The notes below the pieces were generated by a model. It was not told where the DNA came from and did no database searches. It was given only the letters and a program-made list of their open reading frames with translations. The position numbers and the translations under genes are program-made. This document shows, piece by piece, positions 19,232 through 55,684 of a stretch of DNA of 64,000 bases. Within the stretch, counting starts at the first letter, position 1; every line of letters begins with the position of its first letter. The stretch is from an uncultured Verrucomicrobiae bacterium (GTDB lineage: Bacteria > Chlamydiota > Chlamydiia > Chlamydiales > Rhabdochlamydiaceae): positions 1,613,802 through 1,677,801 of the forward strand of contig OY970364.1 of the NCBI GenBank assembly GCA_963718565.1, given 5' to 3'.

Positions 19232-19882
19232 ATGTTATACCGCGCGCAGGAAGGTTTTGTGAATTTGGACTCAGCGAGGCAAAGCACAATCGAAGCTTGC
19301 GGTCCGAATGACGAAGCCATAGTGAAAACTATGGCTGCGGAGACACGAGAAGGTCTAGTAGACCTTCGCAGTGCAGAGCAGGTGAACGAAGCGAACGGGG
19401 AGGATCGATTGGGCAAAGCCGCAGCCAGTCCAAATTCACAAAACCTGACGGAGCGCGGTATATTTGCTAAACATACCACACACTCCCCCGAAGAAACTCA
19501 TCGTTTAGGAAAAGCCTTTGGCCAATCCCTAACTTCCGGTTCCATCATTGCTTTCTTTGGAGACCTCGGTGCAGGTAAAACGACTTTTATTCGCGGTCTT
19601 GTCGATGGGATCGGCTCAGTCGATATGAGAAACGTGTGCAGCCCAACGTTCACTCTCTTGAATATCTACAATGGGGACAAAATGGTATTTCATTTCGATC
19701 TTTATCGACTCCCTAGAGAAGAAGAATTTTTTGCCGCTGGATTTGATGAATATTTTAAAGCTGGGGGCATTTGTTGCTTGGAATGGGCTGAAAAAATTAC
19801 CTCCTCGCTCCCTACTCATACTTTCAAGGTCATTTTTTCTCACCTCGGAGAAAAAACAAGACAAATTGAGATTTTAAAATGA
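19232..19882 (+). CDS. tsaE: tRNA threonylcarbamoyladenosine biosynthesis ATPase TsaE with a MITE-derived 75-aa insertion after residue 2
   Basis: GDLGAGKTTF, CSPTFTL, HFDLYRL, LEWAE; N-terminal block coincides with repeat H. Confidence 0.92.
   Translation: MLYRAQEGFVNLDSARQSTIEACGPNDEAIVKTMAAETREGLVDLRSAEQVNEANGEDRLGKAAASPNSQNLTERGIFAKHTTHSPEETHRLGKAFGQSLTSGSIIAFFGDLGAGKTTFIRGLVDGIGSVDMRNVCSPTFTLLNIYNGDKMVFHFDLYRLPREEEFFAAGFDEYFKAGGICCLEWAEKITSSLPTHTFKVIFSHLGEKTRQIEILK
19236..19462. mobile_element. Family H MITE, in frame in tsaE
   Basis: TATACCGCGC..GCGCGGTATA ends, longer imperfect IR GGTTTTGTGAATTTGGACT/AGTCCAAATTCACAAAACC; net 225 bp after TA duplication; second partial copy at 5100-5167. 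Confidence 0.88.
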
Positions 19883-20526
19883 AAAAAAAAGCTGCATTTA
19901 CCCAAGCGCAATTTATCGCCTCGGCATATTCACAGGATTGTTTTCCCAAAATAGTCACCCCCTCTGGCCATCTGATGCCGGAAATTGCCGTTGTAGGTCG
20001 CTCGAATGTCGGAAAATCTTCCTTAATTAATCATCTTCTTAAGAGCAAGCTAGCAAAAACTTCATCCGCTCCTGGCAAGACGCGATCGATTAATTTTTTC
20101 TCTGTCGATGAGCAGTTTGTCCTTGTCGACCTCCCTGGTTATGGTTACGCTAAGGCGCCCAAACAAGTCAAAGCCCAATGGGTGGATATCATTGATCACT
20201 ATTTGCAAAACCGCTCCACATTGCAATTGATCTTGTTCTTGCTCGATTCCCGACGCCAACCCTCAGAAGAGGACCTCGCTTTTGTCCAATGGGCATCGTT
20301 TCATCAAAAGTCTCAGCTCATCATTTTTACTAAAACAGACAAGACGAGCGAAATGGAAAAAAAGAAAAATACCTTGGCCGCATTGGATTCCCTAAAAAAA
20401 ATTCAAAATTCAGCTTGCCCATGCTTTCTTCATTACTCAATTAAAGATCCGCACGCTAGAATAGAACTTATCCACAAAATTAATAATCTGTTATCTAAAG
20501 AGCGAGTTCAAAATGGGCCTAATTAA
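19879..20526 (+). CDS. engB: Ribosome biogenesis GTPase YihA/YsxC
   Basis: GRSNVGKSS, PGKT, DLPGYG, TKTD. Confidence 0.93.
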   Translation: MKKKAAFTQAQFIASAYSQDCFPKIVTPSGHLMPEIAVVGRSNVGKSSLINHLLKSKLAKTSSAPGKTRSINFFSVDEQFVLVDLPGYGYAKAPKQVKAQWVDIIDHYLQNRSTLQLILFLLDSRRQPSEEDLAFVQWASFHQKSQLIIFTKTDKTSEMEKKKNTLAALDSLKKIQNSACPCFLHYSIKDPHARIELIHKINNLLSKERVQNGPN

Positions 20527-21262
20527 CAAAGATGTGTTCGTCTGTTTAGACTGCGAAACTACCGGGCTCGAAACCGATAAAGATCGCATTATCGAAATCG
20601 CGATGGTGCGATTTGACTTCGATCAAACAGTGGAATCGTTTGAAACGCTGATCGATCCTCAGATGCCTATTCCAGAAGTTTCCATTGCCATTCACCATAT
20701 CAATGATATCATGGTGAAAGGGAAACCGAAAATTCAGGAAATTCTTCCAAAGGTTTTTGAGTTTGTTGGGAAATCCATCCTTGTAGGGCATGGCATCCCT
20801 AACGATATCGCTTTTCTCTGCGCCGCTGCAAAACAACATCAGATCCCTTGCAAGCTCGCTTCGCATCCCTATTTGGACACTTTGCGGTTGGCCCGACTTT
20901 ATGGCGAAAGCCCCATCAATTCTTTAGAAAAACTTCGCCAGCACTTCAACATTGCCGAAGAGGGAGCTCATCGCGCAATGAATGATGTGGTCGTGAACAT
21001 CGAAGTCTTCAAATATCTTGCCCGACGCTATAAAACGACAGAGCAAATCGTCAATCGACTTAAAAGCCCGATTCAGCTTAAAGCGATGCCTCTTGGAAAA
21101 CATAAGGGGCGTTTCTTTTCTGAAATTCCAGTGGAGTATTTACGCTGGGCTGTCAACCAGAACTTCGATCAAGATCTACTTTTCTCTTTGAAAACGGAAT
21201 TAAAAAAACGCAATAAAGGAATCCAATTCGGACAAGCAGCAAGTCCCTTTGCAAATCTTTAA
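20513..21262 (+). CDS. dnaQ: DnaQ-like DEDDh 3'-5' exonuclease with C-terminal extension
   Basis: LDCETTG, VGHGIPND, DTL, AHRAMND; MPLGKHKG tail domain. Confidence 0.85.
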   Translation: MGLINKDVFVCLDCETTGLETDKDRIIEIAMVRFDFDQTVESFETLIDPQMPIPEVSIAIHHINDIMVKGKPKIQEILPKVFEFVGKSILVGHGIPNDIAFLCAAAKQHQIPCKLASHPYLDTLRLARLYGESPINSLEKLRQHFNIAEEGAHRAMNDVVVNIEVFKYLARRYKTTEQIVNRLKSPIQLKAMPLGKHKGRFFSEIPVEYLRWAVNQNFDQDLLFSLKTELKKRNKGIQFGQAASPFANL

Positions 21263-22472
21263 GAGTGTGTTTGTGAAAAAATTGCAATTACAAGATTTAG
21301 ATCCCCAAGGAAAAAAAGTCCTGGTTCGCGTTGATTTCAATGTTCCTTTAAGCAAGGATGGTTCGGTTGTTGACGATACTCGAATTAGAGAATCCCTACC
21401 CACTATTCAATATATTTTAAAATCAGGCGGAAGCGCAATTTTGATGAGCCATTTGGGAAGGCCAAAGGGAACTCCTGATCCTCAATTTTCGCTAATTCCT
21501 TGCGCTAAAGCTCTTTCAAAATTGCTCGGAATACCCGTGCAAATGGCAGAAGATTGCATCGGCGAAAAAGTAGAAAAAATAGCGAGCGATTTGAAACCTG
21601 GGCAAGTTCTTCTCTTGGAAAATTTGCGTTTTCATCCCGCCGAAGAAAAACCTTCTATAGACCCCACTTTTGCAAAAAAGCTCGCACGTCTTGGCGATAT
21701 CTATGTCAACGACGCTTTTGGAACTGCGCATCGCATGCATGCTTCGACAGCGGCGATTGCACAGTATTTTCCAGGAAAATCCGCTGCAGGCTTTCTCATG
21801 CTAAAAGAGATCCATTTTCTCAGCTCACTGCTAAATCCCAAGCGTCCTTTTTACGCCATTATTGGAGGAGCAAAAATTTCTACGAAAATGGGAGTGCTTA
21901 AGTCTCTCCTTTCAAAAACAGATGGTATTTTCATCGGCGGAGGTATGGCCTTTACATGCTACCTTGCCCAAGGGATCAAGATTGGAAACTCTATTCATGA
22001 AGACGACCAGATTCCAGTTGCCACTGAATTTCTAAAAGCATGCGATGAAAAAAAAATTCCTTGCTGGCTGCCTGAAGACTTGATCATTGCAGATGCCTTC
22101 CGCGATGATGCGCAAAGTCAGTGCATTACCGCCTCTCAGGGAATTCCTGATGGCTGGCAAGGGATGGACATTGGACCTGAAACAGTGGAAAAATGGAGCA
22201 CAATCTTAAAAAATGCGGAAACTATTTTTTGGAATGGCCCTCTTGGCGTGTTCGAATTCCCCCATTTTGCTAAAGGGACAGAGCAGATTGCTAAAGTACT
22301 CTCATCTCTTAAGGCAATCACTGTGATTGGAGGCGGAGATTCTGTCGCTGCGGTTCATCAACTGGGGTTGATCTCATCATTTACCCATGTATCGACCGGT
22401 GGGGGAGCTTCATTAGAGTTTATTGAATACGGCCATCTTCCCGGCATCGAAGCTTTGACCGGAGTTAACTAG
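21249..22472 (+). CDS. pgk: Phosphoglycerate kinase (true start probably a few codons downstream)
   Basis: RVDFNVP, SHLGRP, LENLRF, NDAFGTAHR, GGAKISTK, WNGPLG, STGGGASL. Confidence 0.97.
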   Translation: MQIFKSVFVKKLQLQDLDPQGKKVLVRVDFNVPLSKDGSVVDDTRIRESLPTIQYILKSGGSAILMSHLGRPKGTPDPQFSLIPCAKALSKLLGIPVQMAEDCIGEKVEKIASDLKPGQVLLLENLRFHPAEEKPSIDPTFAKKLARLGDIYVNDAFGTAHRMHASTAAIAQYFPGKSAAGFLMLKEIHFLSSLLNPKRPFYAIIGGAKISTKMGVLKSLLSKTDGIFIGGGMAFTCYLAQGIKIGNSIHEDDQIPVATEFLKACDEKKIPCWLPEDLIIADAFRDDAQSQCITASQGIPDGWQGMDIGPETVEKWSTILKNAETIFWNGPLGVFEFPHFAKGTEQIAKVLSSLKAITVIGGGDSVAAVHQLGLISSFTHVSTGGGASLEFIEYGHLPGIEALTGVN

Positions 22473-22479
22473 TTTTAGA

Positions 22480-22733
22480 TTGACAGAGCAGGCAATAGAT
22501 GCTGCAATCGAGGCCCATCGAATTAGGATTGTTACTCAATTTTGGGCGGAAACTGCTTCGCGATGGTATAGAAAGGGTTGTTAATGGTACGTCCTTAAAA
22601 ACTCATGGCAAAAGTTGAAGACCATTTGGATCCATGCCTGATTGAGATCGATAAATGCAAAGCCTGGCATGGATCCAAATGACATTCAGTGCTTGCCATA
22701 GGTTTTTGAGGACGTACTGTTAATGATTTATAA
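22480..22733 (+). pseudogene. Internally deleted GxxExxY (PDDEXK_3-like) gene, further interrupted by a family C MITE
   Basis: LTEQAIDAAIEAHR joined out of frame to LGLLLNFGRKLLRDGIERVVN[MITE]DL*. Confidence 0.6.
22587..22717. mobile_element. Family C MITE, short form (131 bp)
   Basis: Same TIR as 5177-5739; 8-bp TSD TGTTAATG at 22579-22586 and 22718-22725; empty homologous site at 27423-27450 (minus strand). Confidence 0.92.
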
Positions 22734-22861
22734 CCTCCGCGGCTCTGCGTCTTTGCGTTGATCCCCTGCCGACTGTGTTCGTACAGGCGTTACAGGGGGC
22801 TAAAAGAACCAATTTTTGAAGTTTCTTCAGTGTATGCGGCGAGGAGTTTTGCAATTCCCTC
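22728..22861. repeat. Family F repeat followed by a family E end
   Basis: 22728-22834 is a near-perfect reverse complement of 27322-27428; GCGGCGAGGAGTTTTGCAATTCCCTC follows. Confidence 0.85.
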
Positions 22862-23041
22862 TTTAAATTAATTTAGAAAGTGTCTTCAAATTAAAATGAT
22901 TTGAACACACTCTCTTATCAATTTGAGAAAAATTTAATTTTTAGTTTCAAATACATCGGCTGGTTAATCGTTGTCAAATAAGGTAAAACCGCTATAATGG
23001 CCCCATCTTTTAAGAACTGCTCCATATAACCTAGGCGAGAT

Positions 23042-24619
23042 ATGTCTTCTGCGACAGGTTTTGGTAGAATCCGGGCTTTCCTTTGGCCGATCTACCGTCA
23101 TGAGCTGAAAAGGTTCGTTCCTTTACTCTTGATCTTCTTTCTCGTCGGATTTAACTACAGCCTTTTGCGCGGAACAAAGGATGCTCTTGTCGTTACCGCT
23201 CCTTCGTCTGGAGCAGAAGCATTGCCCTACTTGAAGGTCTGGGCGATTGTTCCGATGGCATTTCTTTTTACATTTATTTTTACACGCGTTTCAAACCGCC
23301 TATCCAGGGAAAAAATATTTTACGCGATGATGAGCATTTTCATCGCCTTTTTCTTGTTCTTCATGTTTGCCCTTTATCCCTTTCGAGATGCGCTTCACCC
23401 GCACTCTGTTTGCGATGAGATTCAAAAACTACTTCCTCAAGGTCTGCAGGGATTTGTCGCCATCTTTAGAAACTGGACCTTTACCCTGTTTTACATTATG
23501 GCTGAGATGTGGAGCACGATCATCATGACTGTGCTAGCCTGGGGGTTTGCAAATGATGTGACAAGCGTTAACGATGCCAAACGCTATTATGGGCTTTTAG
23601 GAATTGGAATCAACCTTTCCGGGGTTGTCGCTGGATCTGTCGCCACTTCGATGTCGCAAAACACATTCTACCCAGGCCTGCCCTTTGGAGCGACTGCTTG
23701 GGACCAGACAGTGTTCCTCTTATGTAGTATTTTTGTTCTCGCAGGTGGCTTATGCATGGCCCTCTTTCGCTATATCCATACCCAAGGTCATGGTTACAAC
23801 GCTCCCTCCTATCACGCTCAAAATAAGGGTATGGAAGAAGTAAAAATGGGATTGCGTAAAAATTTTGCTTATTTAGCCAAGTCCAAATATTTGATCTGCA
23901 TCGCGGTCATCGTCGTCATGTACAATATCGCGATTAATCTTGTTGAAGTTGTCTGGAAAGACCAGGTCAAACAACTTTACCCCAACCCTTCGGATTTCAA
24001 TGCCTATATGGGACAAGTTTTAACTTGGATCGGTATTGTAGCAACCATCATCAGCGTATTCATTTCCAGTACGATTATTCGTAAATTCAGCTGGACAACA
24101 AACGCTCTCATCTCGCCGATGATCCTGCTGACAACCGGCATTGCCTTCTTTTTCTTCTTCTTTTTCAAAGACTCTAGTTTTGCCTCCTTTGCTTCCTGGT
24201 TTGGCACAACCCCACTTGCCCTATGCGTCTTTTTTGGGTCCTTGCAAAATTGTCTTGCCCGCGCCTCTAAATATACTCTTTTTGATGCCACCAAAGAACT
24301 TGCCTTCATTCCTCTGAGTAAAGAATGCAAATTAAAAGGAAAAGCAGCGATCGATGGTGTCGGATCCCGCATTGGAAAATCAGGCGGATCGCTCATCCAT
24401 ACCAGCTTGCTCATGGTTTTTGGCACAGTTTCGCTCAGCACTCCCTATGTCGGCTTTCTGCTTTTATTCGTGATCGCGGCATGGACGACGGCTGCTTTTT
24501 CGCTTGGAAAACGCTTTAACGATCTCGTCTCTCATCAAGAAACTCTTAAAGATCCCGACGAAGAGCAAGAACCTGTTCTTCAGCCAGTGATGGCCGACTC
24601 TTCCGCTATACCGAAATGA
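23042..24619 (+). CDS. TLC-family nucleotide (ATP/ADP or NTP) translocase, in the Npt2-like genomic position
   Basis: FNYSLLRGTKDALVV, GAEALPYLKVW, AEMWS, WGFAND, KYTLFDATKE, KGKAAIDGVGSRIGKSGG. Confidence 0.95.
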   Translation: MSSATGFGRIRAFLWPIYRHELKRFVPLLLIFFLVGFNYSLLRGTKDALVVTAPSSGAEALPYLKVWAIVPMAFLFTFIFTRVSNRLSREKIFYAMMSIFIAFFLFFMFALYPFRDALHPHSVCDEIQKLLPQGLQGFVAIFRNWTFTLFYIMAEMWSTIIMTVLAWGFANDVTSVNDAKRYYGLLGIGINLSGVVAGSVATSMSQNTFYPGLPFGATAWDQTVFLLCSIFVLAGGLCMALFRYIHTQGHGYNAPSYHAQNKGMEEVKMGLRKNFAYLAKSKYLICIAVIVVMYNIAINLVEVVWKDQVKQLYPNPSDFNAYMGQVLTWIGIVATIISVFISSTIIRKFSWTTNALISPMILLTTGIAFFFFFFFKDSSFASFASWFGTTPLALCVFFGSLQNCLARASKYTLFDATKELAFIPLSKECKLKGKAAIDGVGSRIGKSGGSLIHTSLLMVFGTVSLSTPYVGFLLLFVIAAWTTAAFSLGKRFNDLVSHQETLKDPDEEQEPVLQPVMADSSAIPK

Positions 24620-24897
24620 ATTCAAGATTTGGAAATTTGGCAAGGCTGCGGATACTTTGAAAATGTCCAGTGGATATTTTCAAAGAGGAGCAGGTGAGCA
24701 AAGCGAACCGGCCCGGAGGGCGCCCTGAATTTGAGCCAGCATATGCGGCGCTGCTGCGGACACTTATCAAAAGAGCACGATTGCTCTTTTGTAAGAGAAG
24801 CAGGCACAACTTGAATAAGTTGTGCGATGCAGGCGGGCTCAAATACAGCGGCTGCCCGACGTAGCCAGAAACCAAATCCTGAGTTCATTTCGGTATA
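24607..24897. mobile_element. Family D MITE, long form (291 bp) overlapping the translocase stop
   Basis: TATACCGAAATGAA..TTCATTTCGGTATA; TA at both ends; homologous to 36317-36490 and 51522-51695. Confidence 0.9.
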
Positions 24898-24938
24898 AGT
24901 AATCAGATTAAATACGATGATATGTTATAAATAATATT

Positions 24939-25565
24939 ATGGAATACCTGACAGAAATCATTACTCGTCACGCCCATCATGCTCATTGGTATCTATTTAT
25001 TGCGATCATTCTAGCCGGATTTAATATTCCTTTTAGCGCGGATCTTCTCATATTGCTTGCAGCGATTTTAGCTGCGACAGTTGTCCCAGAGCACACATGG
25101 CTCCTTTTTTATAGTATTTTATTTGGCTGTTATTTTTCTGCGATGTGCGCATATTGGCTCGGCAGGTTAATTGGAACCGCGCTGAGCAAGAGAAAGTTTT
25201 TTTCAAAACTCCTCAGCGCTCACCGCCTCTCCAGGATTAAACAATTTTATGAGAAATATGGCCTTTGGACACTTGTCATTGGCCGGTTTATTCCATTTGG
25301 TGTGCGTAATTGCATCTTTATGTCTTCGGGAATGAGTAAACTGCACTTTGGAAAATTTGTTCTCATGGATGCCTTTGCCTGCATTCTTTGGTGCAGTACA
25401 TGCTTCTATTTGTTCTTCGCCCTCGGTCAAAACTATGAGGCCATTTGGCATTATCTTAAGACCTTTAATCTGTTAATTTTCGCTGCTTTCAGTGTGACGG
25501 TAATTGGCATTATTTGGTATAAAAGTAGGAAGAAGATACGGAAGAAAAACCTATCAACAAATTAG
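24939..25565 (+). CDS. dedA: DedA-family membrane protein
   Basis: AGFNIPFSADL, YWLGR, GRFIPFGVR. Confidence 0.88.
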   Translation: MEYLTEIITRHAHHAHWYLFIAIILAGFNIPFSADLLILLAAILAATVVPEHTWLLFYSILFGCYFSAMCAYWLGRLIGTALSKRKFFSKLLSAHRLSRIKQFYEKYGLWTLVIGRFIPFGVRNCIFMSSGMSKLHFGKFVLMDAFACILWCSTCFYLFFALGQNYEAIWHYLKTFNLLIFAAFSVTVIGIIWYKSRKKIRKKNLSTN

Positions 25566-27285: not shown

Positions 27286-27458
27286 GGGTGTAAATCAAAA
27301 TATTGAAGCTAGGCATTGAAATATACTGAAGAAACTTCAAAAATTGGTTTTTTTAGCCCCCTGTAGCGCCTGTACGAACACAGTCGGCAGGGGATCAACG
27401 CAAAGACGCAGAGCCGCGGAGGTTATAAATCGTTAACAACCCTTTCTATACCATCGCG
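27286..27458. repeat. Family B half + family F repeat + GxxExxY 3' tail (minus strand)
   Basis: GGGTGTAAATCAAAATATTGAAGCTAGGCATTGAA then the reverse complement of 22728-22834 and FRDGIERVVNDL*. Confidence 0.8.
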
Positions 27459-28899: not shown

Positions 28900-29007
28900 T
28901 AACCACCCGTTCGCTTCGCTCACTAGAGGGCACAGAGAGCACAGAGAAAAAAAATCCTCCCTCTGTGCTCTCTGTGCCCTCTAGTGAACGAAGCGAACGG
29001 GTGGTTA
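28900..29007. repeat. Family I palindrome (108 bp)
   Basis: About 46-bp arms AACCACCCGTTCGCTTCGCTCACTAGAGGGCACAGAGAGCACAGAG, one mismatch. Confidence 0.9.
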
Positions 29008-36316: not shown

Positions 36317-36490
36317 TATACCGAAATGAATTCAAGATTTGGGAATTTGGCAAGGAGGCGCCCTGAATTTGAGCCAGTGTATGCGGCGCCGAAGCAGCAC
36401 AACTTGAATAAGTTGTGCGATGCAGGCGGGCTCAAATACAGCGGCTGCCCGACGTAGCCAAAAACCAAATCTTGAGTTCATTTCGGTATA
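36317..36490. mobile_element. Family D MITE (174 bp)
   Basis: Same ends as 24607-24897, lacks the two internal modules. Confidence 0.9.
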
Positions 36491-38755: not shown

Positions 38756-40504
38756 ATGAAATCGCTCTTTTCCAAAGCATGGATGGAATTCCTTGAGGCT
38801 CGCACTTCCACTTCGGGGAAAAGCTCTCCCGCCGTCTTAGAAGATATCTTCTGTCATGCACTTGATCCTACAGATCTTGAATCTCTCGGCTTGCCACAAT
38901 ATCTAGCCCCACCTTTAGGACGAGGCCTTCCCAAACGCTACTTGCAAACAGATCCATCGATCTGTGAGGTAAAAAACAGCTTTTCCGATGCTGCTTTACT
39001 GCGCAAATTGCGGATAGCAAAAGCGATTTTTTTTCTTTACCAGCAACACAAGTTCCCCAAGAGATCACAAGTTGCCATCTTCACTTGGATCATTGCCGAT
39101 GGAGCAGGGGATTACTATGCAGAGCAGGAAGCTGCCCATGTTTTATTAGGTCCATTTCCAGACCTTTATCTCATTTCGATGCTGCACAAAGATGCAAAAG
39201 TTCCCCCGCTTCATCGAAAATGTCCCCATCATCTTCTTCGCTACAATGGAAAGCTCAATCACCCCATCATCTACGAGGCATTTTCCTCTGAACTTCTCGC
39301 TAAACTCTCTCACACAGATCTCATCCTTGAATTTCCTACCGCCTTTCCATGGATGGCGCAATTGTTGGAAACATTGCGTAAAAATCATCCCACTTTAATT
39401 CACCAAAGAATCGGCGAGCACAGCTTGATCGACTCCCTTGACTTTGCTCCTTCCACAGGCGCTTATTGCATGGGACTCCATGCGCTTGAACTAGGAATTT
39501 TCAGTAAGAAAAATTCTTTTTGCAAAGATGCGATCCTTGGGCTGCAATATCAACCTCTTTTCCAACTTCTCTTCGCTGCGCGCACTCAAGAAGCGGTGGA
39601 AAACTATTTGCTTACGCATTCCTTTAACGTCAGCTATACAAAAACTTTTCGAGGAACCTATCTTTATCTCTACATGTTATGCAAAGGGTTGATCGACAAT
39701 CCCCAAGATATTGACATTTGCTTCTTTAATCTCGACCTTATGCTGAGAGTGCTCCGAGAACGCATCCAAAAAGAAGAACGTTATCCTTTATGGGAACAAT
39801 GCAAGATCGGAAAAGTGCTGATTTACACTCAAACTCATGTTGTACCTATCACCATTTCCAGCGCGCCAAAGACGCTTCGAATGATCCATTGTCCAGAACT
39901 TGCTCAAGAGGATGTGCACAGGCTCTTTTGCTTTACTGAGCATCTCATCGGATGCACCGGCGACCAAACCCTGTGCGAAGCGATTTGTTCGGGAGTTCCT
40001 TTTTTTTACGATCCTCCCCCTTTCAAAAGAGCCATTCTCAAAGACCTTTTGTTTATAGCACAATCGCGCATGCCCCAATACCCTTTCCTGGAGAAACTGT
40101 TCACACTTCTTCTGAAAAATCCCCATGTCATGCTTGAAGAATCTGACGGAGAATGGGTTTCTGAAGATTATATCCAGTCGGAAAACGACCGCCTCTCCCT
40201 AGATGAAGGCAGCGATGAAAACATTGGAGACGCCCTTTCCTCTTTACTTACGGATCCCCGTTTCAAAGAAGGGTTCTTACAATTGCGCGAAATCATCCAG
40301 CACGAGCATTCTTTTGACCCCATGCTCGAAGGAATCATCAACCGCCTGCTTTTCCACAAGCACTTCCCTGCCTTGATGCACTGGGAGCAAGCTGCTTTAT
40401 CCGAGTGCGCACAGGGGAATCTTTCACCCCTCAATTTCTTAGCTCTTCTCAAGGAAAAATTACTCTATACTGGGCGCAGTATATTTTATGGGAGATTGTC
40501 GTAG
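38756..40504 (+). CDS. Hypothetical protein with possible GT-B glycosyltransferase fold
   Basis: DGAGD near the N-terminus; GCTGDQTLCEAICSGVPFFY nucleotide-sugar-binding-like motif. Confidence 0.5.
   Translation: MKSLFSKAWMEFLEARTSTSGKSSPAVLEDIFCHALDPTDLESLGLPQYLAPPLGRGLPKRYLQTDPSICEVKNSFSDAALLRKLRIAKAIFFLYQQHKFPKRSQVAIFTWIIADGAGDYYAEQEAAHVLLGPFPDLYLISMLHKDAKVPPLHRKCPHHLLRYNGKLNHPIIYEAFSSELLAKLSHTDLILEFPTAFPWMAQLLETLRKNHPTLIHQRIGEHSLIDSLDFAPSTGAYCMGLHALELGIFSKKNSFCKDAILGLQYQPLFQLLFAARTQEAVENYLLTHSFNVSYTKTFRGTYLYLYMLCKGLIDNPQDIDICFFNLDLMLRVLRERIQKEERYPLWEQCKIGKVLIYTQTHVVPITISSAPKTLRMIHCPELAQEDVHRLFCFTEHLIGCTGDQTLCEAICSGVPFFYDPPPFKRAILKDLLFIAQSRMPQYPFLEKLFTLLLKNPHVMLEESDGEWVSEDYIQSENDRLSLDEGSDENIGDALSSLLTDPRFKEGFLQLREIIQHEHSFDPMLEGIINRLLFHKHFPALMHWEQAALSECAQGNLSPLNFLALLKEKLLYTGRSIFYGRLS
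40466..40483. repeat. 18-bp TA-flanked mini-palindrome (collapsed family M)
   Basis: TATACTGGGCGCAGTATA; similar at 6276-6292; matches the TIR of 48142-48385. Confidence 0.6.
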
Positions 40505-41623
40505 AGACGACACTTCAAATAGTTCCTAATTGCCTGAGCTTTTTCAGCAAACGTAGAACTTTGCCCATATTGGTCGTAAAAAGCATGTTCTCCGCATCCC
40601 CAATAATCATTGGCGAAAGTTTTGATCTTATATAGTTCTCCGTAGATTGCATTTCTTTTCGCTTCTGGCATCTTTGAAAATAGCTCAAGAGCTTCCCGAG
40701 TGGTATCCAAAATCCCTCTTTCAAACAAACTCGCTCTTTCTAACAACCCAGCAATCCTTTCAAACATCGTGCTGTAAGGTACTGCAAAGTTAAAGACCCT
40801 GATGATACTATCATTAGTAGTACCAAAAAAAACTTCTCCACCAGCAACAGCAACGTAGGGAGTCGAGTTTGCACGCCCATAAAAATCGGCGATGCATTCA
40901 TACTCATAAAGAGCGATGCAGTCATTTGTTTGTGTATCCCGGACATTGATGAAGGCGTAAGAAGCCACCAAATAGCTTGAAAAGAGCTTCTCGCGAAAAA
41001 GAGCAAAGGAATGAAAGCCGTCTCCTCCCTCACAAATAGTGATGAGGCATTGATGTGTTTGCGTATTCCAGACCTTGACTGTGTTATCAAAAGAGCTAGA
41101 AAAGAGTTTCTTCTCCTTGTCAATAACAGCAAGGCAGGAAACCGAGTTTTGATGCCCATTAAGAGTGGCGAGGCATTGATGTTTTCGTATATCCCAGGGC
41201 CTGATTGTGTTATCCTCAGAATTTGAAAATTGATGTTTTTGTGTATCCCAGACATTGATTGTGTGATCCTCAGAGCCTGAATAGAGTGTCCATCCATCAG
41301 CAGTAGTAGCGAGGCAGAGAACTGAGCGTTGATGTCCAACAAGAATGGCGAAGCATTGATGTGTTCGTGTATTCCAGACCCTGATTGTTTTATGCTCAGA
41401 ACCTGAATAGAGTGTCCCTCCATCAGCAGTAGTAGTGATGCAGCGAACTGCGAGTTGATGTCCATCGAGAGTGGTGATGTATTTATTTGTTCGCATATCC
41501 CAGACCTTGATTTCGCCATTCTGAGAACCTGAAAAGAGTTTCTTGCCCTTACCATCAGCAGCAAGGCAGCAAACTCCATGCGCATCAAGAGCGGCCATAC
41601 ATTGATTTGTTTGTATGTCACAG
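40486..41623 (-). pseudogene. 3' part (WD40 repeats + C-terminal domain) of the IS-disrupted F-box/WD40 gene
   Basis: Repeats such as LYSGSEDHTINVWD, LFSSSFDNTVKVWN; reads in frame with 43657-44123 once the IS and one TSD copy are removed. Confidence 0.9.
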
Positions 41624-43356: not shown

Positions 43357-43656
43357 AGAGCTGCTCTCCTAAAATTAAGACGAGCCATTTTGCATGATTG
43401 TTTTAACAGAGTCAAAAAAATTTCCTTAGAAGAGAATTTTCAATATCCCCCTACAAAGTATTGCATCAATAAAGCCCGATACATCGAGAGCGGCTCTTCC
43501 TGAGCCGATCTCGATGTATCGGAACAGCGCCGTAGGACGCTGGGAATATAACTGGGATGAGTCAGAGGGTTTAATATCAGAGGGGGGATGTTACCGTTTC
43601 TTGCCGGAATTGTTGCTCAGAGAAAATTTCAAATATGGATCAAAGTTTACACCCCA

Positions 43657-44123
43657 ATGTCACAGACCTTGATTGTGTGATCTGAAAGGCCTAAAAAGAA
43701 TCTCTCGTCAGTAGCGGCAAAGCAGGTAATTGAGTTTTTATTAGTTGAGTTTTCACGCTCTTGAAGCATATAAAAATCATACACTCCATGTCTAAGATTT
43801 GAATCAAAACTTTGAAGGGCCTGATGAGCTTGGTAAGCCTCCTGAAAGTCTTTGTCTTTAATAGCATTTGGGTCCACATTTGAAAAATCCCTTTTAAACA
43901 GTACGCACCAAAGATACTTATCGTTTAGCATCAGGTTCCACTGCCTGCAGACCAATTTACACGTTCCAATTTTCAGTGCAGAAAAGTCTTTAAAAAATTG
44001 AAAGAATATCTCGAAGGGCACCCTTAAGGCTGGATCTGAGGATGCCACTAGAGCTGGAGCAGCCTGCGATATCGCAACGATAAAGTTTGAATCATTTTTT
44101 GAACAATTTATAGATGGGGTCAT
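43657..44123 (-). pseudogene. 5' part (F-box + first WD repeat) of the IS-disrupted gene
   Basis: VPFEIFFQFF..CKLVCRQWNLMLNDKYLW; ends LSDHTIKVCDI at the TSD. Confidence 0.88.
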
Positions 44124-48141: not shown

Positions 48142-48385
48142 TATACTGCGCCCAGCCTAAAAATATGAATTTAGGGAGTCTTAGAACAGCCCAGGCTTGA
48201 GCGAAGCAAAGCGCTCGTGACGAGGAGGTACTAAATTAATACCTCCGAGGCTGCGGACACTTTGCAAATGTCCGGTGGACATTTGCGAAGGGAAGCAAGT
48301 GAGCGAAGCGAACCGGGAAGATCGTTCAAAAATGGGCTGTTATAATGGCCCCGTAAATTCACATTTTTAGGCTGGACGCAGTATA
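48142..48385. mobile_element. Family M MITE containing a nested family K element
   Basis: About 33-bp TIR TATACTGCG(C/T)CCAGCCTAAAAAT(A/G)TGAATTTA; TA ends. Confidence 0.85.
48182..48344. mobile_element. Family K MITE (163 bp)
   Basis: TA(G/T)AACAGCCCA ends; carries the GGCTGCG..GCGAACCGG module. Confidence 0.7.
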
Positions 48386-49456: not shown

Positions 49457-49484
49457 GAGCCCTGAAATCTTTCAGGGTTTTTTT
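49457..49484 (+). terminator. Intrinsic terminator after tRNA-Ser
   Basis: CCCTGAAA-TC-TTTCAGGG followed by a T run. Confidence 0.75.
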
Positions 49485-49514
49485 ATCTTATAGAGCCTAT
49501 AAAAGGAGATTGCT

Positions 49515-49634
49515 ATGTTCTGCAAAGTCTTATTTATCATGCTTTTCTCGGTTTTCACCACTTTTTCCTATGCAAATTTTAGCGCATGCGATTTATCTCA
49601 CAAAGATGTTCCCTCAATTATACATTCTTCTTAG
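49515..49634 (+). CDS. Possible 39-aa secreted peptide or gene remnant
   Basis: AAGGAG RBS; MFCKVLFIMLFSVFTTFSYA signal-like sequence. Confidence 0.35.
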   Translation: MFCKVLFIMLFSVFTTFSYANFSACDLSHKDVPSIIHSS

Positions 49635-49694
49635 AAGATTGCATAAATATCCCTAAGTCACAATACTTCAAAGATACTTCCCACCAGGTGCCCT

Positions 49695-51146
49695 ATGTCT
49701 GAAGAGCTCGCTTCAAAAGATAAAGTCAGAATCGCCCCCAATTCTAAAGAGTCAGAAATGATCGTGCTCGGCTCAATGCTTACAAGCATTAATAGTTTAA
49801 ACATAGGAGCCGATGGACTTGATGAGGGAGATTTTTACTTCACCGAACATAGAATCATTTTTCAGGCTTTAAAGAATGCTTATCGCAATGACAAGCCTGC
49901 GGATGTGCACCTGATCGGTGAAGAGCTCAAAAGGCAGGACAAACTTAAAGCCATCGGTGGCTTAGGCTATCTGACGACGTTGGCACAATACGCCGGAACT
50001 TCAGCCTATATTGAAGAATATATCGAACTTGTTCGAGATAAATCCATTCTTCGCAGAATGATCAATGTCGCACAAGAAGTAGAGCGAGAGGCCCTCAATA
50101 ATCCCGAAGATGTGCATGTTCTTCTCGACGACACTCAAGCCAAATTTTTCCTCATTAGCCAGGCTGCTAATTTCAATGCCGGTATTTTAATCAAAGATCT
50201 TCTCTCCGGGGTGAAGGCATCTTCTCAGTTGCCTTACCTCAAGGAACTCCAAGAGCGCCAAGAGCGCTTTCAGAAAAAGGGACCTGATGAATTAGGAATC
50301 ACGGGAATCCCCACACACTTTGTCGATTTGGATAAATTGACCAACGGCCTTGGCGCCTCCAACTTAATGATCCTCGCGGCGCGGCCCGCAATGGGAAAGA
50401 CCGCCCTTGCACTCAATGTTGTTGAAAATGTCGCTTTTAAAAATTCACTTCCCGTAGGTATCTTCTCTTTGGAAATGACCGCCGAGCAGCTTCTCCATCG
50501 CATGATCTGCAGTCAGGCAGAAGTCGAATCGGATAAAATTCGGACAGGTTCGGTCAACGGCATCGAATACCAACGCATCGTCGCTGCTGTCAATTCCATG
50601 ATGAAAGGAATTGTGATTATCGACGACCAGCCTGGATTGAAAATCACTGATTTACGCGCCCGTGCACGCCGTATGAAAGAAAGTCATAACATCCAACTTC
50701 TCGTCGTCGACTACCTGCAGCTGATCTCAGGTTCGGGACTTTCGCGTAGCGGGGAAAATCGTCAAAATGAAATTTCTGAAATTTCGCGTATGATGAAAAC
50801 TTTAGCACGCGAATTGAATTTGCCCATCCTCTGTTTATCCCAGCTCTCCCGTAAAGTCGAAGAAAGGCAAGGCCATCGTCCTATGATGAGTGATTTGAGA
50901 GAAAGCGGCGCGATCGAGCAGGATAGCGATATCGTGATGTTCTTATTGCGCCGGGAATACTATGATCCTTATGACAAACCGGGAATGGCAGAGTTGATTG
51001 TTGCTAAAAACCGTCATGGAGCTGTGGGAAGTGTGAACCTGACTTACCGAAAAGAACTTGCACAGTTTGCCAACTATTCGCCCATGCATGCAAGTGCTAG
51101 CCCTTCTGCAGATAACGATGAGGCTTTCGCTGCTTTTTCTCATTGA
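49695..51146 (+). CDS. dnaB: Replicative DNA helicase
   Basis: AARPAMGKT, SLEM, VDYLQL, LSQLSR, SDLRESGAIEQD, KNRHG. Confidence 0.98.
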   Translation: MSEELASKDKVRIAPNSKESEMIVLGSMLTSINSLNIGADGLDEGDFYFTEHRIIFQALKNAYRNDKPADVHLIGEELKRQDKLKAIGGLGYLTTLAQYAGTSAYIEEYIELVRDKSILRRMINVAQEVEREALNNPEDVHVLLDDTQAKFFLISQAANFNAGILIKDLLSGVKASSQLPYLKELQERQERFQKKGPDELGITGIPTHFVDLDKLTNGLGASNLMILAARPAMGKTALALNVVENVAFKNSLPVGIFSLEMTAEQLLHRMICSQAEVESDKIRTGSVNGIEYQRIVAAVNSMMKGIVIIDDQPGLKITDLRARARRMKESHNIQLLVVDYLQLISGSGLSRSGENRQNEISEISRMMKTLARELNLPILCLSQLSRKVEERQGHRPMMSDLRESGAIEQDSDIVMFLLRREYYDPYDKPGMAELIVAKNRHGAVGSVNLTYRKELAQFANYSPMHASASPSADNDEAFAAFSH

Positions 51147-51206
51147 TTACCAATGGGTTACACGAAAAATCTCCCGAGCATTGGCCTCTGCTAATTTTTT
51201 ATTTTA

Positions 51207-51297
51207 GAGGGAATTGCAAAACTCCTCGCTGCATAAAACGGCAAGCCAAGATTTGAACTGATTTCGCGAGCGAAGCGAGTGAAATTAGTCCAAACCC
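51207..51297. repeat. Family E end plus a GCGAAGC-containing hairpin
   Basis: GAGGGAATTGCAAAACTCCTCGC; ACTGATTTCGC-GAGCGAAGCGA-GTGAAATTAGT. Confidence 0.65.
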
Positions 51298-51401
51298 AAG
51301 TATAATCCCTTTACTTTTTCTTATTTTGCTTATAAACTCGCCATTTACTTTTTAATAGACCCTTTTTAAGTTGATATTTAGATCAGGGAGCATTATTCTC
51401 T

Positions 51402-51488
51402 ATGGCATCTGTAAAGAAAAAACGCCGTGCTAAGATCGCAAAGCACAAAAGAAAAAAAAGACGCCGCCGTGATCGGCACAAAAAATAA
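51402..51488 (+). CDS. 28-aa basic protein, AURKAIP1/COX24 (bS22/mS38-like) family; not in the ORF track
   Basis: MASVKKKRRAKIAKHKRKKRRRRDRHKK; GGGAG upstream. Confidence 0.8.
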   Translation: MASVKKKRRAKIAKHKRKKRRRRDRHKK

Positions 51489-51521
51489 CTCTAAAAATTA
51501 GAGTTGTTTCGAGAGGGCCTC

Positions 51522-51695
51522 TATACCGAAACAACATGAAGAATTGAAATTTTGGCAAAGCTGGCGCCCAAAGTTTGAACCAGCGAAGCGGCGACGAAGC
51601 AGCACAACTTGAACAAGTTGTGCGATGCAGGCGGGATCAAAATCTGGGATGTCCAGCGCAGCCAAAAAACCGATTCTTCATGTTGTTTCGGTATA
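51522..51695. mobile_element. Family D MITE, diverged copy (174 bp)
   Basis: TATACCGAAACAACATGAAGAA..TTCTTCATGTTGTTTCGGTATA; shares GCACAACTTGAA(C/T)AAGTTGTGCGATGCAGGCGGG core. Confidence 0.88.
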
Positions 51696-51759
51696 AACTT
51701 AAGCAATGAAAGTCTATTGCAGTAGGGGTTTTTGTCATTACTCAATCCGTTCTTTTTGA

Positions 51760-51827
51760 CCTGAGTTTTGGACTTTTTTTATAGTAAACTGGGCGCAGTA
51801 TGGTATGAAATGAACCCAAAACTCAGG
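51760..51827. repeat. Family A MITE (68 bp)
   Basis: CCTGAGTTTTGG..CCAAAACTCAGG; flanks TTTTTGA/TTTTTTA. Confidence 0.78.
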
Positions 51828-51838
51828 TTTTTTAAATC

Positions 51839-53671
51839 ATGTGGACATACCCAGAAGAATTTGATGTCATTGTCGTAGGTGCCGGACACTCGGGTTGTGA
51901 AGCTGCACATGCAGCTGCAAAAATGGGAGCCAAAACTCTCCTATTGACAATGAATCTGGACACGATCGCCAAGATGAGTTGCAATCCGGCTGTTGGGGGG
52001 ACCGCGAAGGGACATATCGTCCGTGAAATCGATGCTCTTGGCGGGATCATGGGAAAAGTGACGGATCAAACAGGAATTCAGTTTCGGATGCTGAATGCCT
52101 CCAAAGGGCCAGCTGTCTGGTCTCCACGAGCGCAAACGGATAAGTTCGCTTACGCAGCCGCCATGAAACATCGCCTCGAGAAAGCCCCCAACTTGTTGAT
52201 TAAGCAAGGGACCACGGAATCTCTTGTTGTTGCAGGAAATAAGATCTGCGGACTCGCAACCCTGGAAGGGATTGGCTATCAAGGTAAAACCCTTATCATT
52301 TCCTCTGGGACATTTATGCGAGGCTTGATCCATATTGGACAGGCCCAATTTCCAGGCGGAAGGGCGGGAGATAAGCCTTCCGTGGGTTTGTCTGCCCATT
52401 TAGAATCGCTTGGGTTTAGATTAGGACGGTTAAAAACAGGCACACCACCGCGCATCAACCGACGCAGTATCGACTTTTCTCAAATGCAAGAGCAGCCTGG
52501 AGAAGAAGGCATCCGTTTTTCTTACGATGAAGCGGAAGGTCCAGGCCTTCCCCAAGTCCCATGCCACATCACTTATACTAACGAGGAGACCAAGAAAGTC
52601 ATCCGCGAAAATCTCCATCTTTCTCCGATGTACTCCGGACAAATCAAAAGTATTGGTCCAAGATACTGTCCTTCCATTGAAGATAAAATCGTCCGATTTG
52701 CAGATAAAGAGCGGCATCAATTGTTCCTCGAACCCGAAGGTTTAAACACGGAAGAAATTTACGTTAACGGAATTTCATCCTCTCTTCCTTTCGATGTCCA
52801 GCTCCGCATGCTGCATACGATTCAAGGACTGGAAAAAGCAGAAGTCATGCGCCCCGCTTATGCGATCGAATACGACTACGTGAAAAGCGGACAGCTTTAT
52901 TCCACTTTAGAAACTCAACTTATCGAAGGTTTGTTCTTCGCGGGACAAATCAATGGGACAACAGGATATGAGGAGGCGGCGGGGCAAGGCCTCATTGCTG
53001 GAATCAATGCCGCATTGAAAGTTGCTAGCAAACCTCCTTTTGTCCTCAAGCGCTCTGAGGCATACATCGGCGTCATGATCGATGAGCTCATTTCTAAAGA
53101 ACTCGATGAGCCTTATCGCATGTTCACAAGCCGTGCAGAGCATCGTCTGCTGCTTCGTCAAGATAATGCCGATCTGCGTTTGCGCGAATTTGGGTACCAT
53201 TTGGGATTGATTGACTCCGGACGTTATCAACGGCTCCAAGAAAAGAAAACATGCATAGAATCTGAAATTGCCCGACTGACCAAAACGTACTGTCAAGTTA
53301 ATGGAAAATCGATATCTCTTGCACAGCTTCTCTGTCGTCCAGAATTTACCTGCCAAAAAATTTTGGAAGAATTCTCCGATCGTGTCACTGATTACGGCCC
53401 AGAGATCAACTTCCAAATTGAGCTGAACTTAAAGTATGCAGGATATATTGAAAGGCAGACGCAAGAAGCGGCCAAATTGGAAACGATCGAACGTTTTCTG
53501 ATTCCCAAAAATTTTAATTTTTTAGAAGTCACAGGATTAAGCAATGAGGCACGTGAAAAACTCCATCGTATTCAACCTTCCAATCTCGGGCAAGCTTCCC
53601 GCGTTTCCGGTGTTTCCCCAGCAGATATCTCCGTTTTAATGGTTGCACTCAAACAAAATCAAAAAAGGTGA
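51839..53671 (+). CDS. mnmG: tRNA uridine 5-carboxymethylaminomethyl modification enzyme
   Basis: [45 protein letters not shown]. Confidence 0.98.
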
Positions 53672-53674
53672 TTC

Positions 53675-54616
53675 ATGACCAGCTCAGATTCACTCCCGAT
53701 CATTTTGGTCGTTTCTGCGGACAGCTACAAAAGCGCTTTTTTTAAACGCACGCTGCAAGGGTTATTTTATGTGATCGATGCCACTGATAGTTTTACAGCC
53801 GTTGATTGGCTGAAAGGCGTGCACGCTTCCCTCATTATTCTCGATGAAAAAACTCTCTCAAACACATGGCCCATTATCGCCGATCATATTAGAACCTTAA
53901 GCGGCTATCGCGAGGTTCCTCTTTTATTGATCACTAATAACCTTAAAAAAAATTTTCTCGTTAAAGCGCTAAATATGGGGATTACCGATTTTCTCAATGA
54001 GCCTTTCGATGCGGATGAAGTATTTCAGCGTATTCTTGTCGCTACTCAATCAAAGCCCGTGACAAAAAAAATCACTCTAATGGCTAAAAAATTCAAAAAA
54101 ACGCCCTCCATATCCCCTGCTAAACTCTCTTCACCTCAACGTTTTGTCATTACTGAAGATGCCATCAAAGAAATTGCGACAGTGCAGCGAAAACATCAAT
54201 CGATGTGTTTGCTGCTCTTAGAAATGGATGGCTTTCAAAAAATCGCCCAGGAAGTTGGCGAGGGAGGGGCGCAGAAACTCCTCTCGCATATTCAACATCT
54301 GTTCAAAACTCATCAACGGCGCCTAGACGTCATCTTACCTCAAGGCAATGGCCGGTTTTTATGGATGTTGCCCAATACTTCTCATCGCGCCGCAATGACA
54401 ATAGCGGAGACTTTGCGCAAAGAGATTCAAGAAAAACCGTTTCCTATCAAATCGCATTCCATTCCGCTCTCTTTATCGATTGGAGTCGTCACTCTCGATA
54501 AAAACTCTGTCTTGTCTCAAAGCGCCTATGACCAATTCGGCTCTTTACTAGGAAAAGTTGACCGTGCTCTTAATAAAGCCAAGCAAAAAGGCAATCAAAT
54601 TATTTCGGAGAAGTAA
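53675..54616 (+). CDS. Receiver + degenerate GGDEF protein
   Basis: LIILD receiver; LEMDGF, RRLD I-site, GNGRF in place of GG(D/E)EF, SLSIGV, KQKGN. Confidence 0.75.
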   Translation: MTSSDSLPIILVVSADSYKSAFFKRTLQGLFYVIDATDSFTAVDWLKGVHASLIILDEKTLSNTWPIIADHIRTLSGYREVPLLLITNNLKKNFLVKALNMGITDFLNEPFDADEVFQRILVATQSKPVTKKITLMAKKFKKTPSISPAKLSSPQRFVITEDAIKEIATVQRKHQSMCLLLLEMDGFQKIAQEVGEGGAQKLLSHIQHLFKTHQRRLDVILPQGNGRFLWMLPNTSHRAAMTIAETLRKEIQEKPFPIKSHSIPLSLSIGVVTLDKNSVLSQSAYDQFGSLLGKVDRALNKAKQKGNQIISEK

Positions 54617-54629
54617 TACTTGGAAAAAT

Positions 54630-55331
54630 ATGTTTCAGGTGCTTCGATTAAAATCTTATCCCATTTTTGACCAACTTCTCCTCGAAGAGAAACTCTTGCG
54701 TTCTGATTCAGGCAATTGGTGTCTGATCAATGAAGGCTCAACACCTGCGATTGTGATGGGCATTTCTGGGAAAAAGGAGGAATGGGTCGATTGTGCAAGA
54801 GTTGCAGAAGATAAGATCCCTTTGATTAAACGATTCAGTGGTGGCGGGACCGTCTTTGTCGATGAGGACACTTTGTTCATTACTTTCATTTGTCAAAAGC
54901 AGCTTCACAATTTTCCTGCTTATCCCGAGCCAATCATGCGATGGACAGAACAGATTTATGCGCAAGCGTTCCAACACCCTGGATTTTGCCTAAAAGAAAA
55001 TGATTATGTCATCGAAGATCGAAAATTCGGCGGTAATGCACAATACATCAAAAAAGATAGGTGGCTGCATCACACTTCCCTTTTATGGAATTTCTCTTCC
55101 GAAAAGATGCAGTATCTGCTTCATCCTAAAAAAACGCCTTCCTACCGCTCTGGACGCCCGCATGAGGAATTCCTTTGCCGGCTCTCGGAATATTTTGCTG
55201 ATAAGGAAGAATTCATTGAACGGGTTATCCATGAAATTGGGAAACGCTTCCCTATTCAGAAAATTTCTCTGGAAGAAGCGCAATCCATCCCTCAACATTC
55301 CACTCGTCAATCAACTAAAAGATATGGGTAA
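54630..55331 (+). CDS. lplA: Lipoate-protein ligase A family protein
   Basis: KRFSGGGTVFVD, KFGGNAQ, HHTSLL. Confidence 0.9.
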   Translation: MFQVLRLKSYPIFDQLLLEEKLLRSDSGNWCLINEGSTPAIVMGISGKKEEWVDCARVAEDKIPLIKRFSGGGTVFVDEDTLFITFICQKQLHNFPAYPEPIMRWTEQIYAQAFQHPGFCLKENDYVIEDRKFGGNAQYIKKDRWLHHTSLLWNFSSEKMQYLLHPKKTPSYRSGRPHEEFLCRLSEYFADKEEFIERVIHEIGKRFPIQKISLEEAQSIPQHSTRQSTKRYG

Positions 55332-55337
55332 TAACAT

Positions 55338-55409
55338 GTGTCCGCGTTTCCGACATATGAAATGGAGGCATTACTTCAATGCCTAGCCTCAACACTTTGA
55401 TTTACACCC
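55338..55409. repeat. Family B half copy
   Basis: Reverse complement of the left arm of 5410-5556. Confidence 0.85.
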
Positions 55410-55455
55410 CCAAAATTTACAAAAATTGCCTCAAAATCTAAGACAATTTACTATA

Positions 55456-55684
55456 GAGGGAATTGCAAAACTCCTCGCCAGCAGAAAATCGATGATTTTG
55501 GCACCTGTTGCCAGAACCCGCACAGCGGGTTCGGTTGGCGGCGGCGAAAGCATACTTGGATAAGTTGGCTGCGAAGACACGAAAAGGTCCGGGGAACCTT
55601 CGTAAGTAGCAAAGCAGGTGAGCGAAGAGCGAACCGGGGCCGAAGGCAGCCGCCGCCAAGGCAACAGGTGCCAAAAGCGCGATT
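55456..55684. mobile_element. Family E copy carrying the extra ~80-nt module, one end truncated
   Basis: Aligns to the reverse complement of 59969-60150 apart from the insert at 55566-55647. Confidence 0.85.

Follow-up and report, generated by a model that had tools for sequence, protein, structure and literature searches.

How the same short, structured block of DNA came to lie inside several otherwise dissimilar transposable elements is the question raised by a 64,000-nucleotide (nt) stretch of an uncultured rhabdochlamydial genome (contig OY970364.1), referred to here at its full length as the window. The block, which we call the module, consists of two hairpins set between constant junctions and lies within miniature inverted-repeat transposable elements (MITEs) of at least five families, H, D, K, E and an F/G host among them. 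The module stands apart from its hosts as a unit and is not an ancestral part of them. Tentatively, and with confidence a little short of even, we read it as a non-autonomous cassette that would be recognized as a folded single strand, mobilized in trans and then carried by the MITEs.

Four full copies are present in the window, all on the plus strand and aligning end to end. They had been picked out in a sequence-only reading of this DNA, and sequence, whole-length alignment and a covariance model all bear out their placement. The model, built from 25 distinct copies, was applied to the entire window with filters off; the bit scores of the four window copies, which belong to those 25, are partly given by construction. 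The first copy (19333-19400, 72.1 bits) forms the center of a family H MITE (19236-19462, plus strand, ends TATACCGCGC...GCGCGGTATA); its larger hairpin, P2, is of subtype A (GAAGGTCT-AGT-AGACCTTC), and its smaller one, P3, reads GTGA-AC-GAA-GC-GAAC with one A.C mismatch. The second (24644-24720, 87.5 bits) occupies site 1 of a family D MITE that holds two cassettes (24607-24897, plus strand, ends TATACCGAAATGAA...TTCATTTCGGTATA) and combines a subtype B P2, a 14-bp stem, with a P3 of the form GC-AAA-GC followed by an optional 3' mini-hairpin, CCC-GGA-GGG. Subtype B recurs in the third copy (48249-48317, 83.7 bits, P3 GC-GAA-GC), which lies just 3' of the apical hairpin of a family K MITE (48142-48385, plus strand, ends TATACTGCGCCC...GGACGCAGTATA). 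The fourth (55567-55647, 55.3 bits), near the apex of a family E MITE (55452-55684, plus strand, left end TATAGAGGGAATTGCAAAACTCC, right terminus missing), is full but decayed, with a mismatched subtype A P2 (AAGGTCC/GAACCTT) and a P3 pentaloop, GC-GAAGA-GC. Site 2 of the D MITE holds a short plus-strand cassette of the closing helix P1 and P2 only (24752-24804, 28.9 bits), arranged as GCTGCGGACAC-hairpin-GAGAAGCAGG. Its stem is AAAAGAGCA/TGCTCTTTT, which the sequence-only reading had assigned to the E copy; the inner stems were otherwise as described there.

Beyond these copies and a palindrome at 28900-29007, the model returned no other credible match in the window. The 15-mer GTGAGCGAAGCGAAC, with up to two mismatches, has 5 matches in the window against 0.16 expected, and none of 100 shuffles reaches 5, which argues against recurrence by chance. 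Compared with shuffled sequence, folding is stable in the D copy (z = -3.7), the K copy (z = -3.1) and the short copy (z = -5.0); the E copy folds no better than its shuffles (z = +0.47).

The consensus of the module is 5'-GGCTGCGRA-NAC-(P2 hairpin)-RRAGCAG-GTGA-(P3 hairpin)-GAACYGG, about 68-85 nt in all. In P1, CTGC pairs with GCAG and closes P2, which has 11-14 bp and in its commonest type retains one A.G mismatch and one bulged A. The P3 stem has 2-6 bp, and in some hosts the optional mini-hairpin CCC-GNA-GGG follows, with all four bases occurring at N. Three blocks are invariant, GGCTGCG(R)A, AGCAGGTGA and GAAC(Y)GG. The two ends, GGCTGCG... and ...GAACYGG, are not inverted repeats of each other, and one hairpin lies near each.

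Between the invariant GGTGA and GAAC, P3 varies widely. The short form has a 2-bp stem and a loop of 3-5 nt (GC-GAA-GC, GC-AAA-GC, AC-GAA-GT, GC-GAAA-GC, GC-GAATA-GC and others), and in the long form an additional A precedes a 6-bp stem capped by a TT loop, at least 12 different, perfectly paired stems of this kind being found. A tally at this position gives GCAAAGC 16 times, ACGAAGT 5 times, GCGAATAGC 7 times and the 6-bp stem with TT loop about 30 times. Loops of the GNA and GNNA types are documented as stable DNA mini-hairpins, including the GCGNAGC type (PMC13037366). The special role once proposed for d(GCGAAGC) does not hold up, as any hairpin fits between GGTGA and GAAC; the d(GCGNAGC)/d(GCGNNAGC) mini-hairpin is not a conserved core, and GCGAAGC-type sequence is not kept across copies.

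The case for structure had been staked on covariation, and both hairpins covary strongly. When 25 short-P3 copies are aligned by MAFFT, without fitting to the structure, pairing holds in 87% of cells, and 12 pairs are changed on both sides. Their covariation score of 0.272 compares with 0.100 in shuffles, none of 500 being as high, and slid controls pair at 35-44%. In 30 long-P3 copies, 92.9% of cells pair, compared with 84.2% in shuffles (0/500) and 31-45% in slid controls, with two-sided changes in 5 of the 6 P3-stem pairs and 7 of the 14 P2 pairs; P1 and the GGT/ACC frame of P3 show no variation at all in this set. Repetitive extragenic palindromes (REPs) with their REP-associated tyrosine transposases (RAYTs), the ends of IS200/IS605 insertion sequences and integron attC sites are all handled as folded single strands. 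Because only the junction bases of the module are invariant, and both stems vary yet pair, recognition as a folded single strand appears most likely here too, and the agent that copies the cassette would recognize hairpin shape together with the fixed junction bases.

The two-sided changes that retain pairing in both hairpins are what structural selection, as proposed earlier, would produce; the same pairing could alternatively be kept up by intrastrand template-switch correction of imperfect palindromes, with no selection involved. Such correction cannot fix unpaired junction bases. The 5', middle and 3' junctions are constant in at least 25 genomes even though PolA identity among these is only about 60-90% and the host flanks diverge, and this constancy needs a constraint beyond correction.

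That the module is separate from its hosts is apparent from filled and empty versions of the same element, which exist for all four window hosts, D and E in the window itself and K and H in other genomes. Within family D, the element at 24607-24897 can be set against two sisters on the plus strand in which both cassette sites are empty, one at 36317-36490 and a diverged one at 51522-51695. At site 1 the module cleanly separates GGCAAGG from AGGCGCC, which are directly joined in the 36317-36490 copy; at site 2 the short variant stands in place of CGAAGCAG, which in the empty copy is flanked as GGCGC-CGAAGCAG-CACAAC. The E element at 55452 differs from its empty sister (59969-60150, minus strand) by exactly the module, inserted after GGATAAGT where the sister reads GGATAAGT followed at once by AGGAGAGCC. 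The sequence-only reading had already noted that the D copy at 36317-36490 and the E sister lack the module; the absence is exact, and the copy at 51522-51695 adds a third empty element. A K element without the module is found in locus L002 (5260-5445) and an H-like one in locus L072 (7033-7205). A composite two-site host in other metagenome-assembled genomes (MAGs) occurs in three of its four possible states: L009 and L079 are occupied at both sites, L007 at the first site alone, and L021 and L055 at the second alone.

The cassette is also exchangeable, as had been suggested. At one D-host site, P2 is of subtype B in the window and MAG JOPF242 but of subtype A in MFD00008.bin.2.72, and in D-type hosts of other genomes the module stands reversed at the same arm position or at the mirror position in the other arm. 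These swaps of stem subtype and orientation at one host site are hard to reconcile with descent of the four hosts from a single ancestral, module-containing element through deletions. That explanation can point to about 8-10 nt of terminal sequence (TATACYG..., flanked by TA) common to H, K and D. Beyond the module, however, H, D, K and E show no similarity to one another in a BLAST search at a word size of 9 nt, and E has unrelated ends of ISAs1 type (GAGGGAATTGC); with TATACYG ends on one side and ISAs1-type ends on the other, the hosts belong to at least two transposition systems. We regard a common ancestor, along with chance recurrence, as highly improbable.

The entry points have features in common. 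All four empty hosts fold into long DNA hairpins (-48 to -72 kcal/mol), and in each the point of entry lies in the unpaired center, directly 3' of a small apical hairpin. The left junctions read CGAG^, GCGAG^, CAAG^ and GTAG^, with ...AG^ alone in common, and across six filled/empty pairs no target duplication appears consistently. On the cassette reading, the module would enter several unrelated MITE families at their unpaired center, in either orientation, usually right after the small apical hairpin and after ...AG, and would do so with neither terminal inverted repeats nor detectable target duplication. The MITEs would then spread it with their own DDE transposases, and the enzyme that recognizes the module, whose existence we infer along with mobilization in trans, would be encoded elsewhere in the genome. 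A bolder form of this proposal, in which the module represents a new kind of miniature element of 70-85 nt with two hairpins and three junctions, served by a putative trans-acting single-strand enzyme that prefers unpaired hairpin tips, strikes us as doubtful.

Several observations weigh against a mobilized cassette. Some empty sites already resemble joined module ends: the D right arm changes from GGCTGC^CCGACG when empty to GGCTGC(...)CCGG when filled, and the empty sites 2 (CGAAGCAG) and 3 (CGATGCAGG) retain GCAG(G). Whole MITEs can be chimeric, as in JOPF242, where a D-type interior is joined to K/H-type ends. Module-like empty sites and chimeric MITEs are equally compatible with insertion and with copying directed by short homology. 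Neither a HUH nor a Y1 protein is encoded among the 50 main open reading frames (ORFs) of the window (Pfam) or near 96 module-bearing loci, where the sequence-only reading had envisaged an adjacent gene of this kind, and no protein recurs beside the modules in those loci; all-against-all clustering of ORFs, in 44 and then in 96 loci, yields only syntenic housekeeping genes and translations of the repeats. Nor is there a full-length, Y1-encoding relative of the module in the window or the module loci, or an integrase in the window (Pfam). Mismatches in the well-aligned long-P3 set are evenly divided between G.T (11) and A.C (11), and neither strand is therefore favored as the folded one. Local GC skew divides the copies 20 (G-rich strand) to 21 (C-rich strand) and gives no sign of a replication-strand bias; the test is weak, local skew being noisy and the modules riding in MITEs, which would erase any bias. 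In Logan contigs from four soil runs, fragments of 150-440 nt at about 2-6x word depth and thus too broken up to reveal joints, no insertion event was seen.

Some of these observations lend weight to an enzyme-free explanation in which the module is a passive mosaic block, one of several interchangeable ones in a recombining MITE superfamily, copied between families by microhomology-driven template switching or by gene conversion, its stems staying paired through palindrome correction during replication. Entry points that look like joined module ends, chimeric MITEs, the equality of G.T and A.C mismatches and the lack of an enzyme in the window or beside the modules all agree with it, as do module-in-module arrangements and duplicated 3' halves (L025 and L052), which look like products of unequal recombination. 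Against it, the K, H, E and F/G hosts have entry sites that share at most 1-2 nt with the module ends, and the junctions are constant, as discussed above. We consider such passive copying rather unlikely.

A second alternative is that the module is a structured RNA motif, a protein-binding, processing or transcript-stabilizing signal, selected at the RNA level and hitch-hiking in MITEs. A pair of covarying helices joined by conserved bases is what a structured RNA usually shows, and tandem G.A pairs frame P3. GAAA, GUAA, GAAGA and C-UU-G are classic RNA loops, and among the P3 loops are tetraloops of GNRA type, GNRA-like pentaloops (GAAA, GUAA, GAAGA, GAAUA) and C-UU-G; loops of DNA type being present as well, the P3 repertoire does not decide between DNA and RNA. 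Among 108 copies whose orientation was scored, 25 are sense and 16 antisense between co-directional genes, a slight excess that is not significant, and 23 lie between convergent and 12 between divergent genes. The other evidence runs against an RNA. No match to an Rfam family or REP motif was found: at gathering score, the window and 18 module-bearing loci give tRNAs only, and at E values up to 10 the D and K copies and one long-P3 copy give only noise. In the D and K copies, the promoter signal does not exceed shuffle expectation, and there is no terminator-like site, with CCGG(CCCGNAGGG) and no T run after P3. Both module orientations occur within the same host, G.U is no commoner than A.C, and dozens of copies lie inside selfish repeats at arbitrary intergenic places. 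The lack of transcription-strand bias and the multicopy residence in selfish repeats make a host-selected RNA function less likely, and we judge an RNA motif to be distinctly unlikely. None of the public runs that contain the window sequence is an RNA run. Two RNA folds were considered by eye and dropped, a K-turn at the P1/P2 junction and a hammerhead-like core (CAGGUGA(helix)GAAC compared with CUGAUGA(helix)GAAA); in both, key invariant positions differ and no Rfam ribozyme model matches.

The cassette reading also gains from the breadth of the module's distribution, for which other chlamydiae had been named as the place to look. A first scan, of one genome per species with the 3' 20-mer as query, found full modules in 14 chlamydial MAGs; this complete scan found the module in no cultured chlamydia. 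A second scan, which required only the 5' tag plus AGCAGGTGA, matched more than 101 stretches. Taken together, the two place the module in at least 25 species-level genomes, and all that can be placed are chlamydial. One small module-bearing contig is binned as Pseudobdellovibrionaceae and may be mis-binned. Plasmid and phage collections gave no match, and viral contigs contain no full module, only the 20-mer in other contexts.

The 20-mer, AGCAAGTGAGCGAAGCGAAC, has a distribution of its own. It caps longer stems whose sequence varies from copy to copy while pairing is retained, usually in the context ...CCTG-AGCAAGTGAGCGAAGCGAAC-GCGTCGAAGG..., and such repeats occur in Omnitrophota, Planctomycetota, Kiritimatiellia, Lentisphaerota, Acidobacteriota, an alphaproteobacterium, Clostridia, Lacticaseibacillus, Prevotellamassilia and some viral contigs (loci L006, L011, L013, L026, L029, L030, L032, L039, L043, L046, L059, L061, L065, L077, L078 and L083; viral L137, L139 and L140). 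The module may belong with these repeats to a wider class of the form helix-TGA(hairpin)GAAC, the 20 shared bases being imposed by the search pattern and compatible with either homology to the chlamydial P3 or convergence.

The palindrome at 28900-29007 (108 nt, near perfect, not assigned to a strand) carries the module motif in its arms, as had been noticed: GTGAGCGAAGCGAAC exactly on the minus strand and GTGAACGAAGCGAAC on the plus strand, with 28906-29001 scoring 30.2 and 25.9 bits on the two strands. Read along either strand, the palindrome presents a hairpin and then GTGA(G/A)CGAAGCGAACGGG, and the P3 motif thus stands at both outer ends. The palindrome is a single copy, located between an SppA-like peptidase gene and polA, and an A-rich 14-nt center parts its arms. 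In a relative, L086, the intergenic space that holds this palindrome in the window is occupied by an empty D-type MITE.

In JOPF242, 12 copies have identical module sequence and all lie in the same D-like MITE, and many copies in its contigs (L005, L008, L045, L056, L058, L076 and others) fall within about 100-150 nt of the contig ends, which suggests a recent burst that breaks short-read assembly. A 972-amino-acid (aa) ORF in L009 (5081-7999, minus strand, contig DASUCX010000067.1) runs in frame and free of stops through a two-module repeat, corresponding to residues ~347-472; a homologue in L071 aligns on both sides and lacks the segment. In the window, a 216-aa ORF (19232-19882) overlaps the H MITE, and its TsaE domain begins only at residue 84, so that the true start is probably at ~19480 and the H repeat intergenic.

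The window contains one candidate mobilizer, and it concerns the E host. An ISAs1-type insertion sequence (10472-11895, minus strand) encodes DDE_Tnp_1 and DDE_Tnp_1_assoc domains in an ORF at 10553-11821, the only transposase among Pfam matches that otherwise comprise housekeeping genes and eukaryote-like F-box and WD40 proteins. Its 49-nt inverted ends begin with GAGGGAATTGCAAAAC, a terminus common to E-family MITEs that recurs at some ten other positions in the window (7589, 12183, 22833, 27714, 51203, 55452, 56155, 59965 and 60122). Given this shared terminus, E-type repeats look like miniature derivatives of the insertion sequence, which is likely to be the mobilizer of the E host and not of the module.

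The setting is chlamydial. PolA of the window shares 91% identity with its counterpart in a 'Candidatus Rhabdochlamydia sp.' MAG and 80% with that of MAG MFD09671.bin.1.113, which NCBI labels 'Verrucomicrobiae'. By its PolA the latter looks chlamydial, its label following a broader phylum concept. From the 80% identity, 'Verrucomicrobiae' most likely stands for a chlamydia here and, by analogy, on several other module-bearing MAGs; those others are placed by shared repeats alone and not by PolA. MAGs deposited as 'Verrucomicrobiae' or 'Verrucomicrobia' with the same chlamydial repeats include L002, L010, L025, L052, L086, L143, L150 and others. The window has a G+C content of ~43% and encodes, besides ordinary housekeeping genes, the chlamydial hallmarks Ntt-type ATP/ADP translocase (TLC) and DUF2709 (Pfam), and the public runs that contain its sequence are soil metagenomes only. 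Eukaryote-like proteins are typical of chlamydiae living in protists, and here they comprise two F-box proteins (13084-13950 and 43647-44123) and a WD40-repeat protein (40486-41598) whose gene contains 126-nt tandem repeats. The intergenic space of this genome is densely filled with small repeats. Palindromic intergenic repeats without the module, of at least three families, lie at 5108-5740, 12940-13009, 22581-22835, 27321-27438, 55338-55463 and 6308-6475, with starts such as GGGTGTAAATAAAAGTGTTGAGGCTAGGCATTGAA... and GTACGTCCTTAAAAACTCATGGCAAAAG....

If the cassette is indeed mobilized as a folded single strand, it points to an unrecognized enzyme system in environmental chlamydiae, and the cassette would be selfish DNA that parasitizes selfish DNA. 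The module also has practical consequences, as it breaks short-read assemblies (many JOPF242 copies lie at contig ends), creates spurious ORFs and can lie in frame within real genes. More than 90 distinct copies with two covarying helices provide a test set for distinguishing selection on structure from mutational correction of palindromes. Small structured repeats such as REPs, bacterial interspersed mosaic elements (BIMEs), enterobacterial repetitive intergenic consensus (ERIC) sequences and Rickettsia palindromic elements (RPEs) are known mostly from proteobacteria. Nothing comparable was found for Chlamydiota in full-text searches on Waddlia and Rhabdochlamydia genome repeats or in the genome papers met there, and a literature search for the 12-mer GAGCGAAGCGAA found no relevant paper that contains it.

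Among known systems, the module differs from MITEs of the DDE type, its own hosts, in that they have inverted ends and it has neither terminal inverted repeats nor a target-site duplication. Insertions of ~70 bp inside enterobacterial ERIC elements, also called intergenic repeat units (IRUs), were reportedly described by Sharp in 1997 and by Wilson and Sharp in 2006. Like the module, these are hairpin blocks of ~70 bp at specific internal sites of a palindromic repeat and are absent from sister copies. The module, unlike them, occupies at least five host families with two end types, in both orientations and in at least 25 genomes, and has two covarying hairpins and invariant junctions. RPEs are likewise small palindromic repeats of an obligate intracellular bacterium, and their in-frame insertions have a parallel in the read-through of the 972-aa ORF of L009. 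That case was seen once only, and most module copies are intergenic; moreover, RPEs are whole elements, whereas the module is a cassette nested in other repeats.

The closest parallels are with systems that are read as folded single strands. Integron attC sites, which are recognized as folded single-stranded DNA, resemble the module in their free sequence, retained pairing and short conserved boxes at the base. The module, however, lacks RYYYAAC or GTTRRRY boxes, forms no arrays of ORF cassettes and has no integrase nearby, its copies lying isolated inside MITEs between housekeeping genes. IS200/IS605 ends and palindrome-associated transposable elements (PATEs) share with it the lack of terminal inverted repeats and of target duplication, hairpins near both ends and sharply defined filled and empty states. 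They differ in having a Y1 transposase gene, which was not found with the module in the window or its loci, a lagging-strand bias, which the module does not show, and a defined target of 4-5 nt where the module has a loose ...AG^; the module is also far shorter than known PATEs. With REPs and BIMEs and their RAYTs it has in common short, multicopy extragenic hairpins with variable stems and a short conserved tag, mosaic combinations with other motifs and presumed recognition of the folded single strand by a trans-acting enzyme. Its tags, GGCTGCGRA, AGCAGGTGA and GAACYGG, are not the GTAG or CGTC of REPs, which it does not contain, and no RAYT gene was found in the window or the 96 module loci. 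It has two hairpins where a REP has one, and where REPs alternate in pairs, module copies are mostly single inside MITEs or in direct tandem within one host (L009 and L079), an inverted pair of P3 motifs occurring only in the palindrome at 28900-29007. The module works like REPs and BIMEs, IS200/IS605 ends or attC sites, yet by the features that define each it belongs to none of these groups, and it takes its place among the small structured, non-autonomous repeats that are nested in other repeats.

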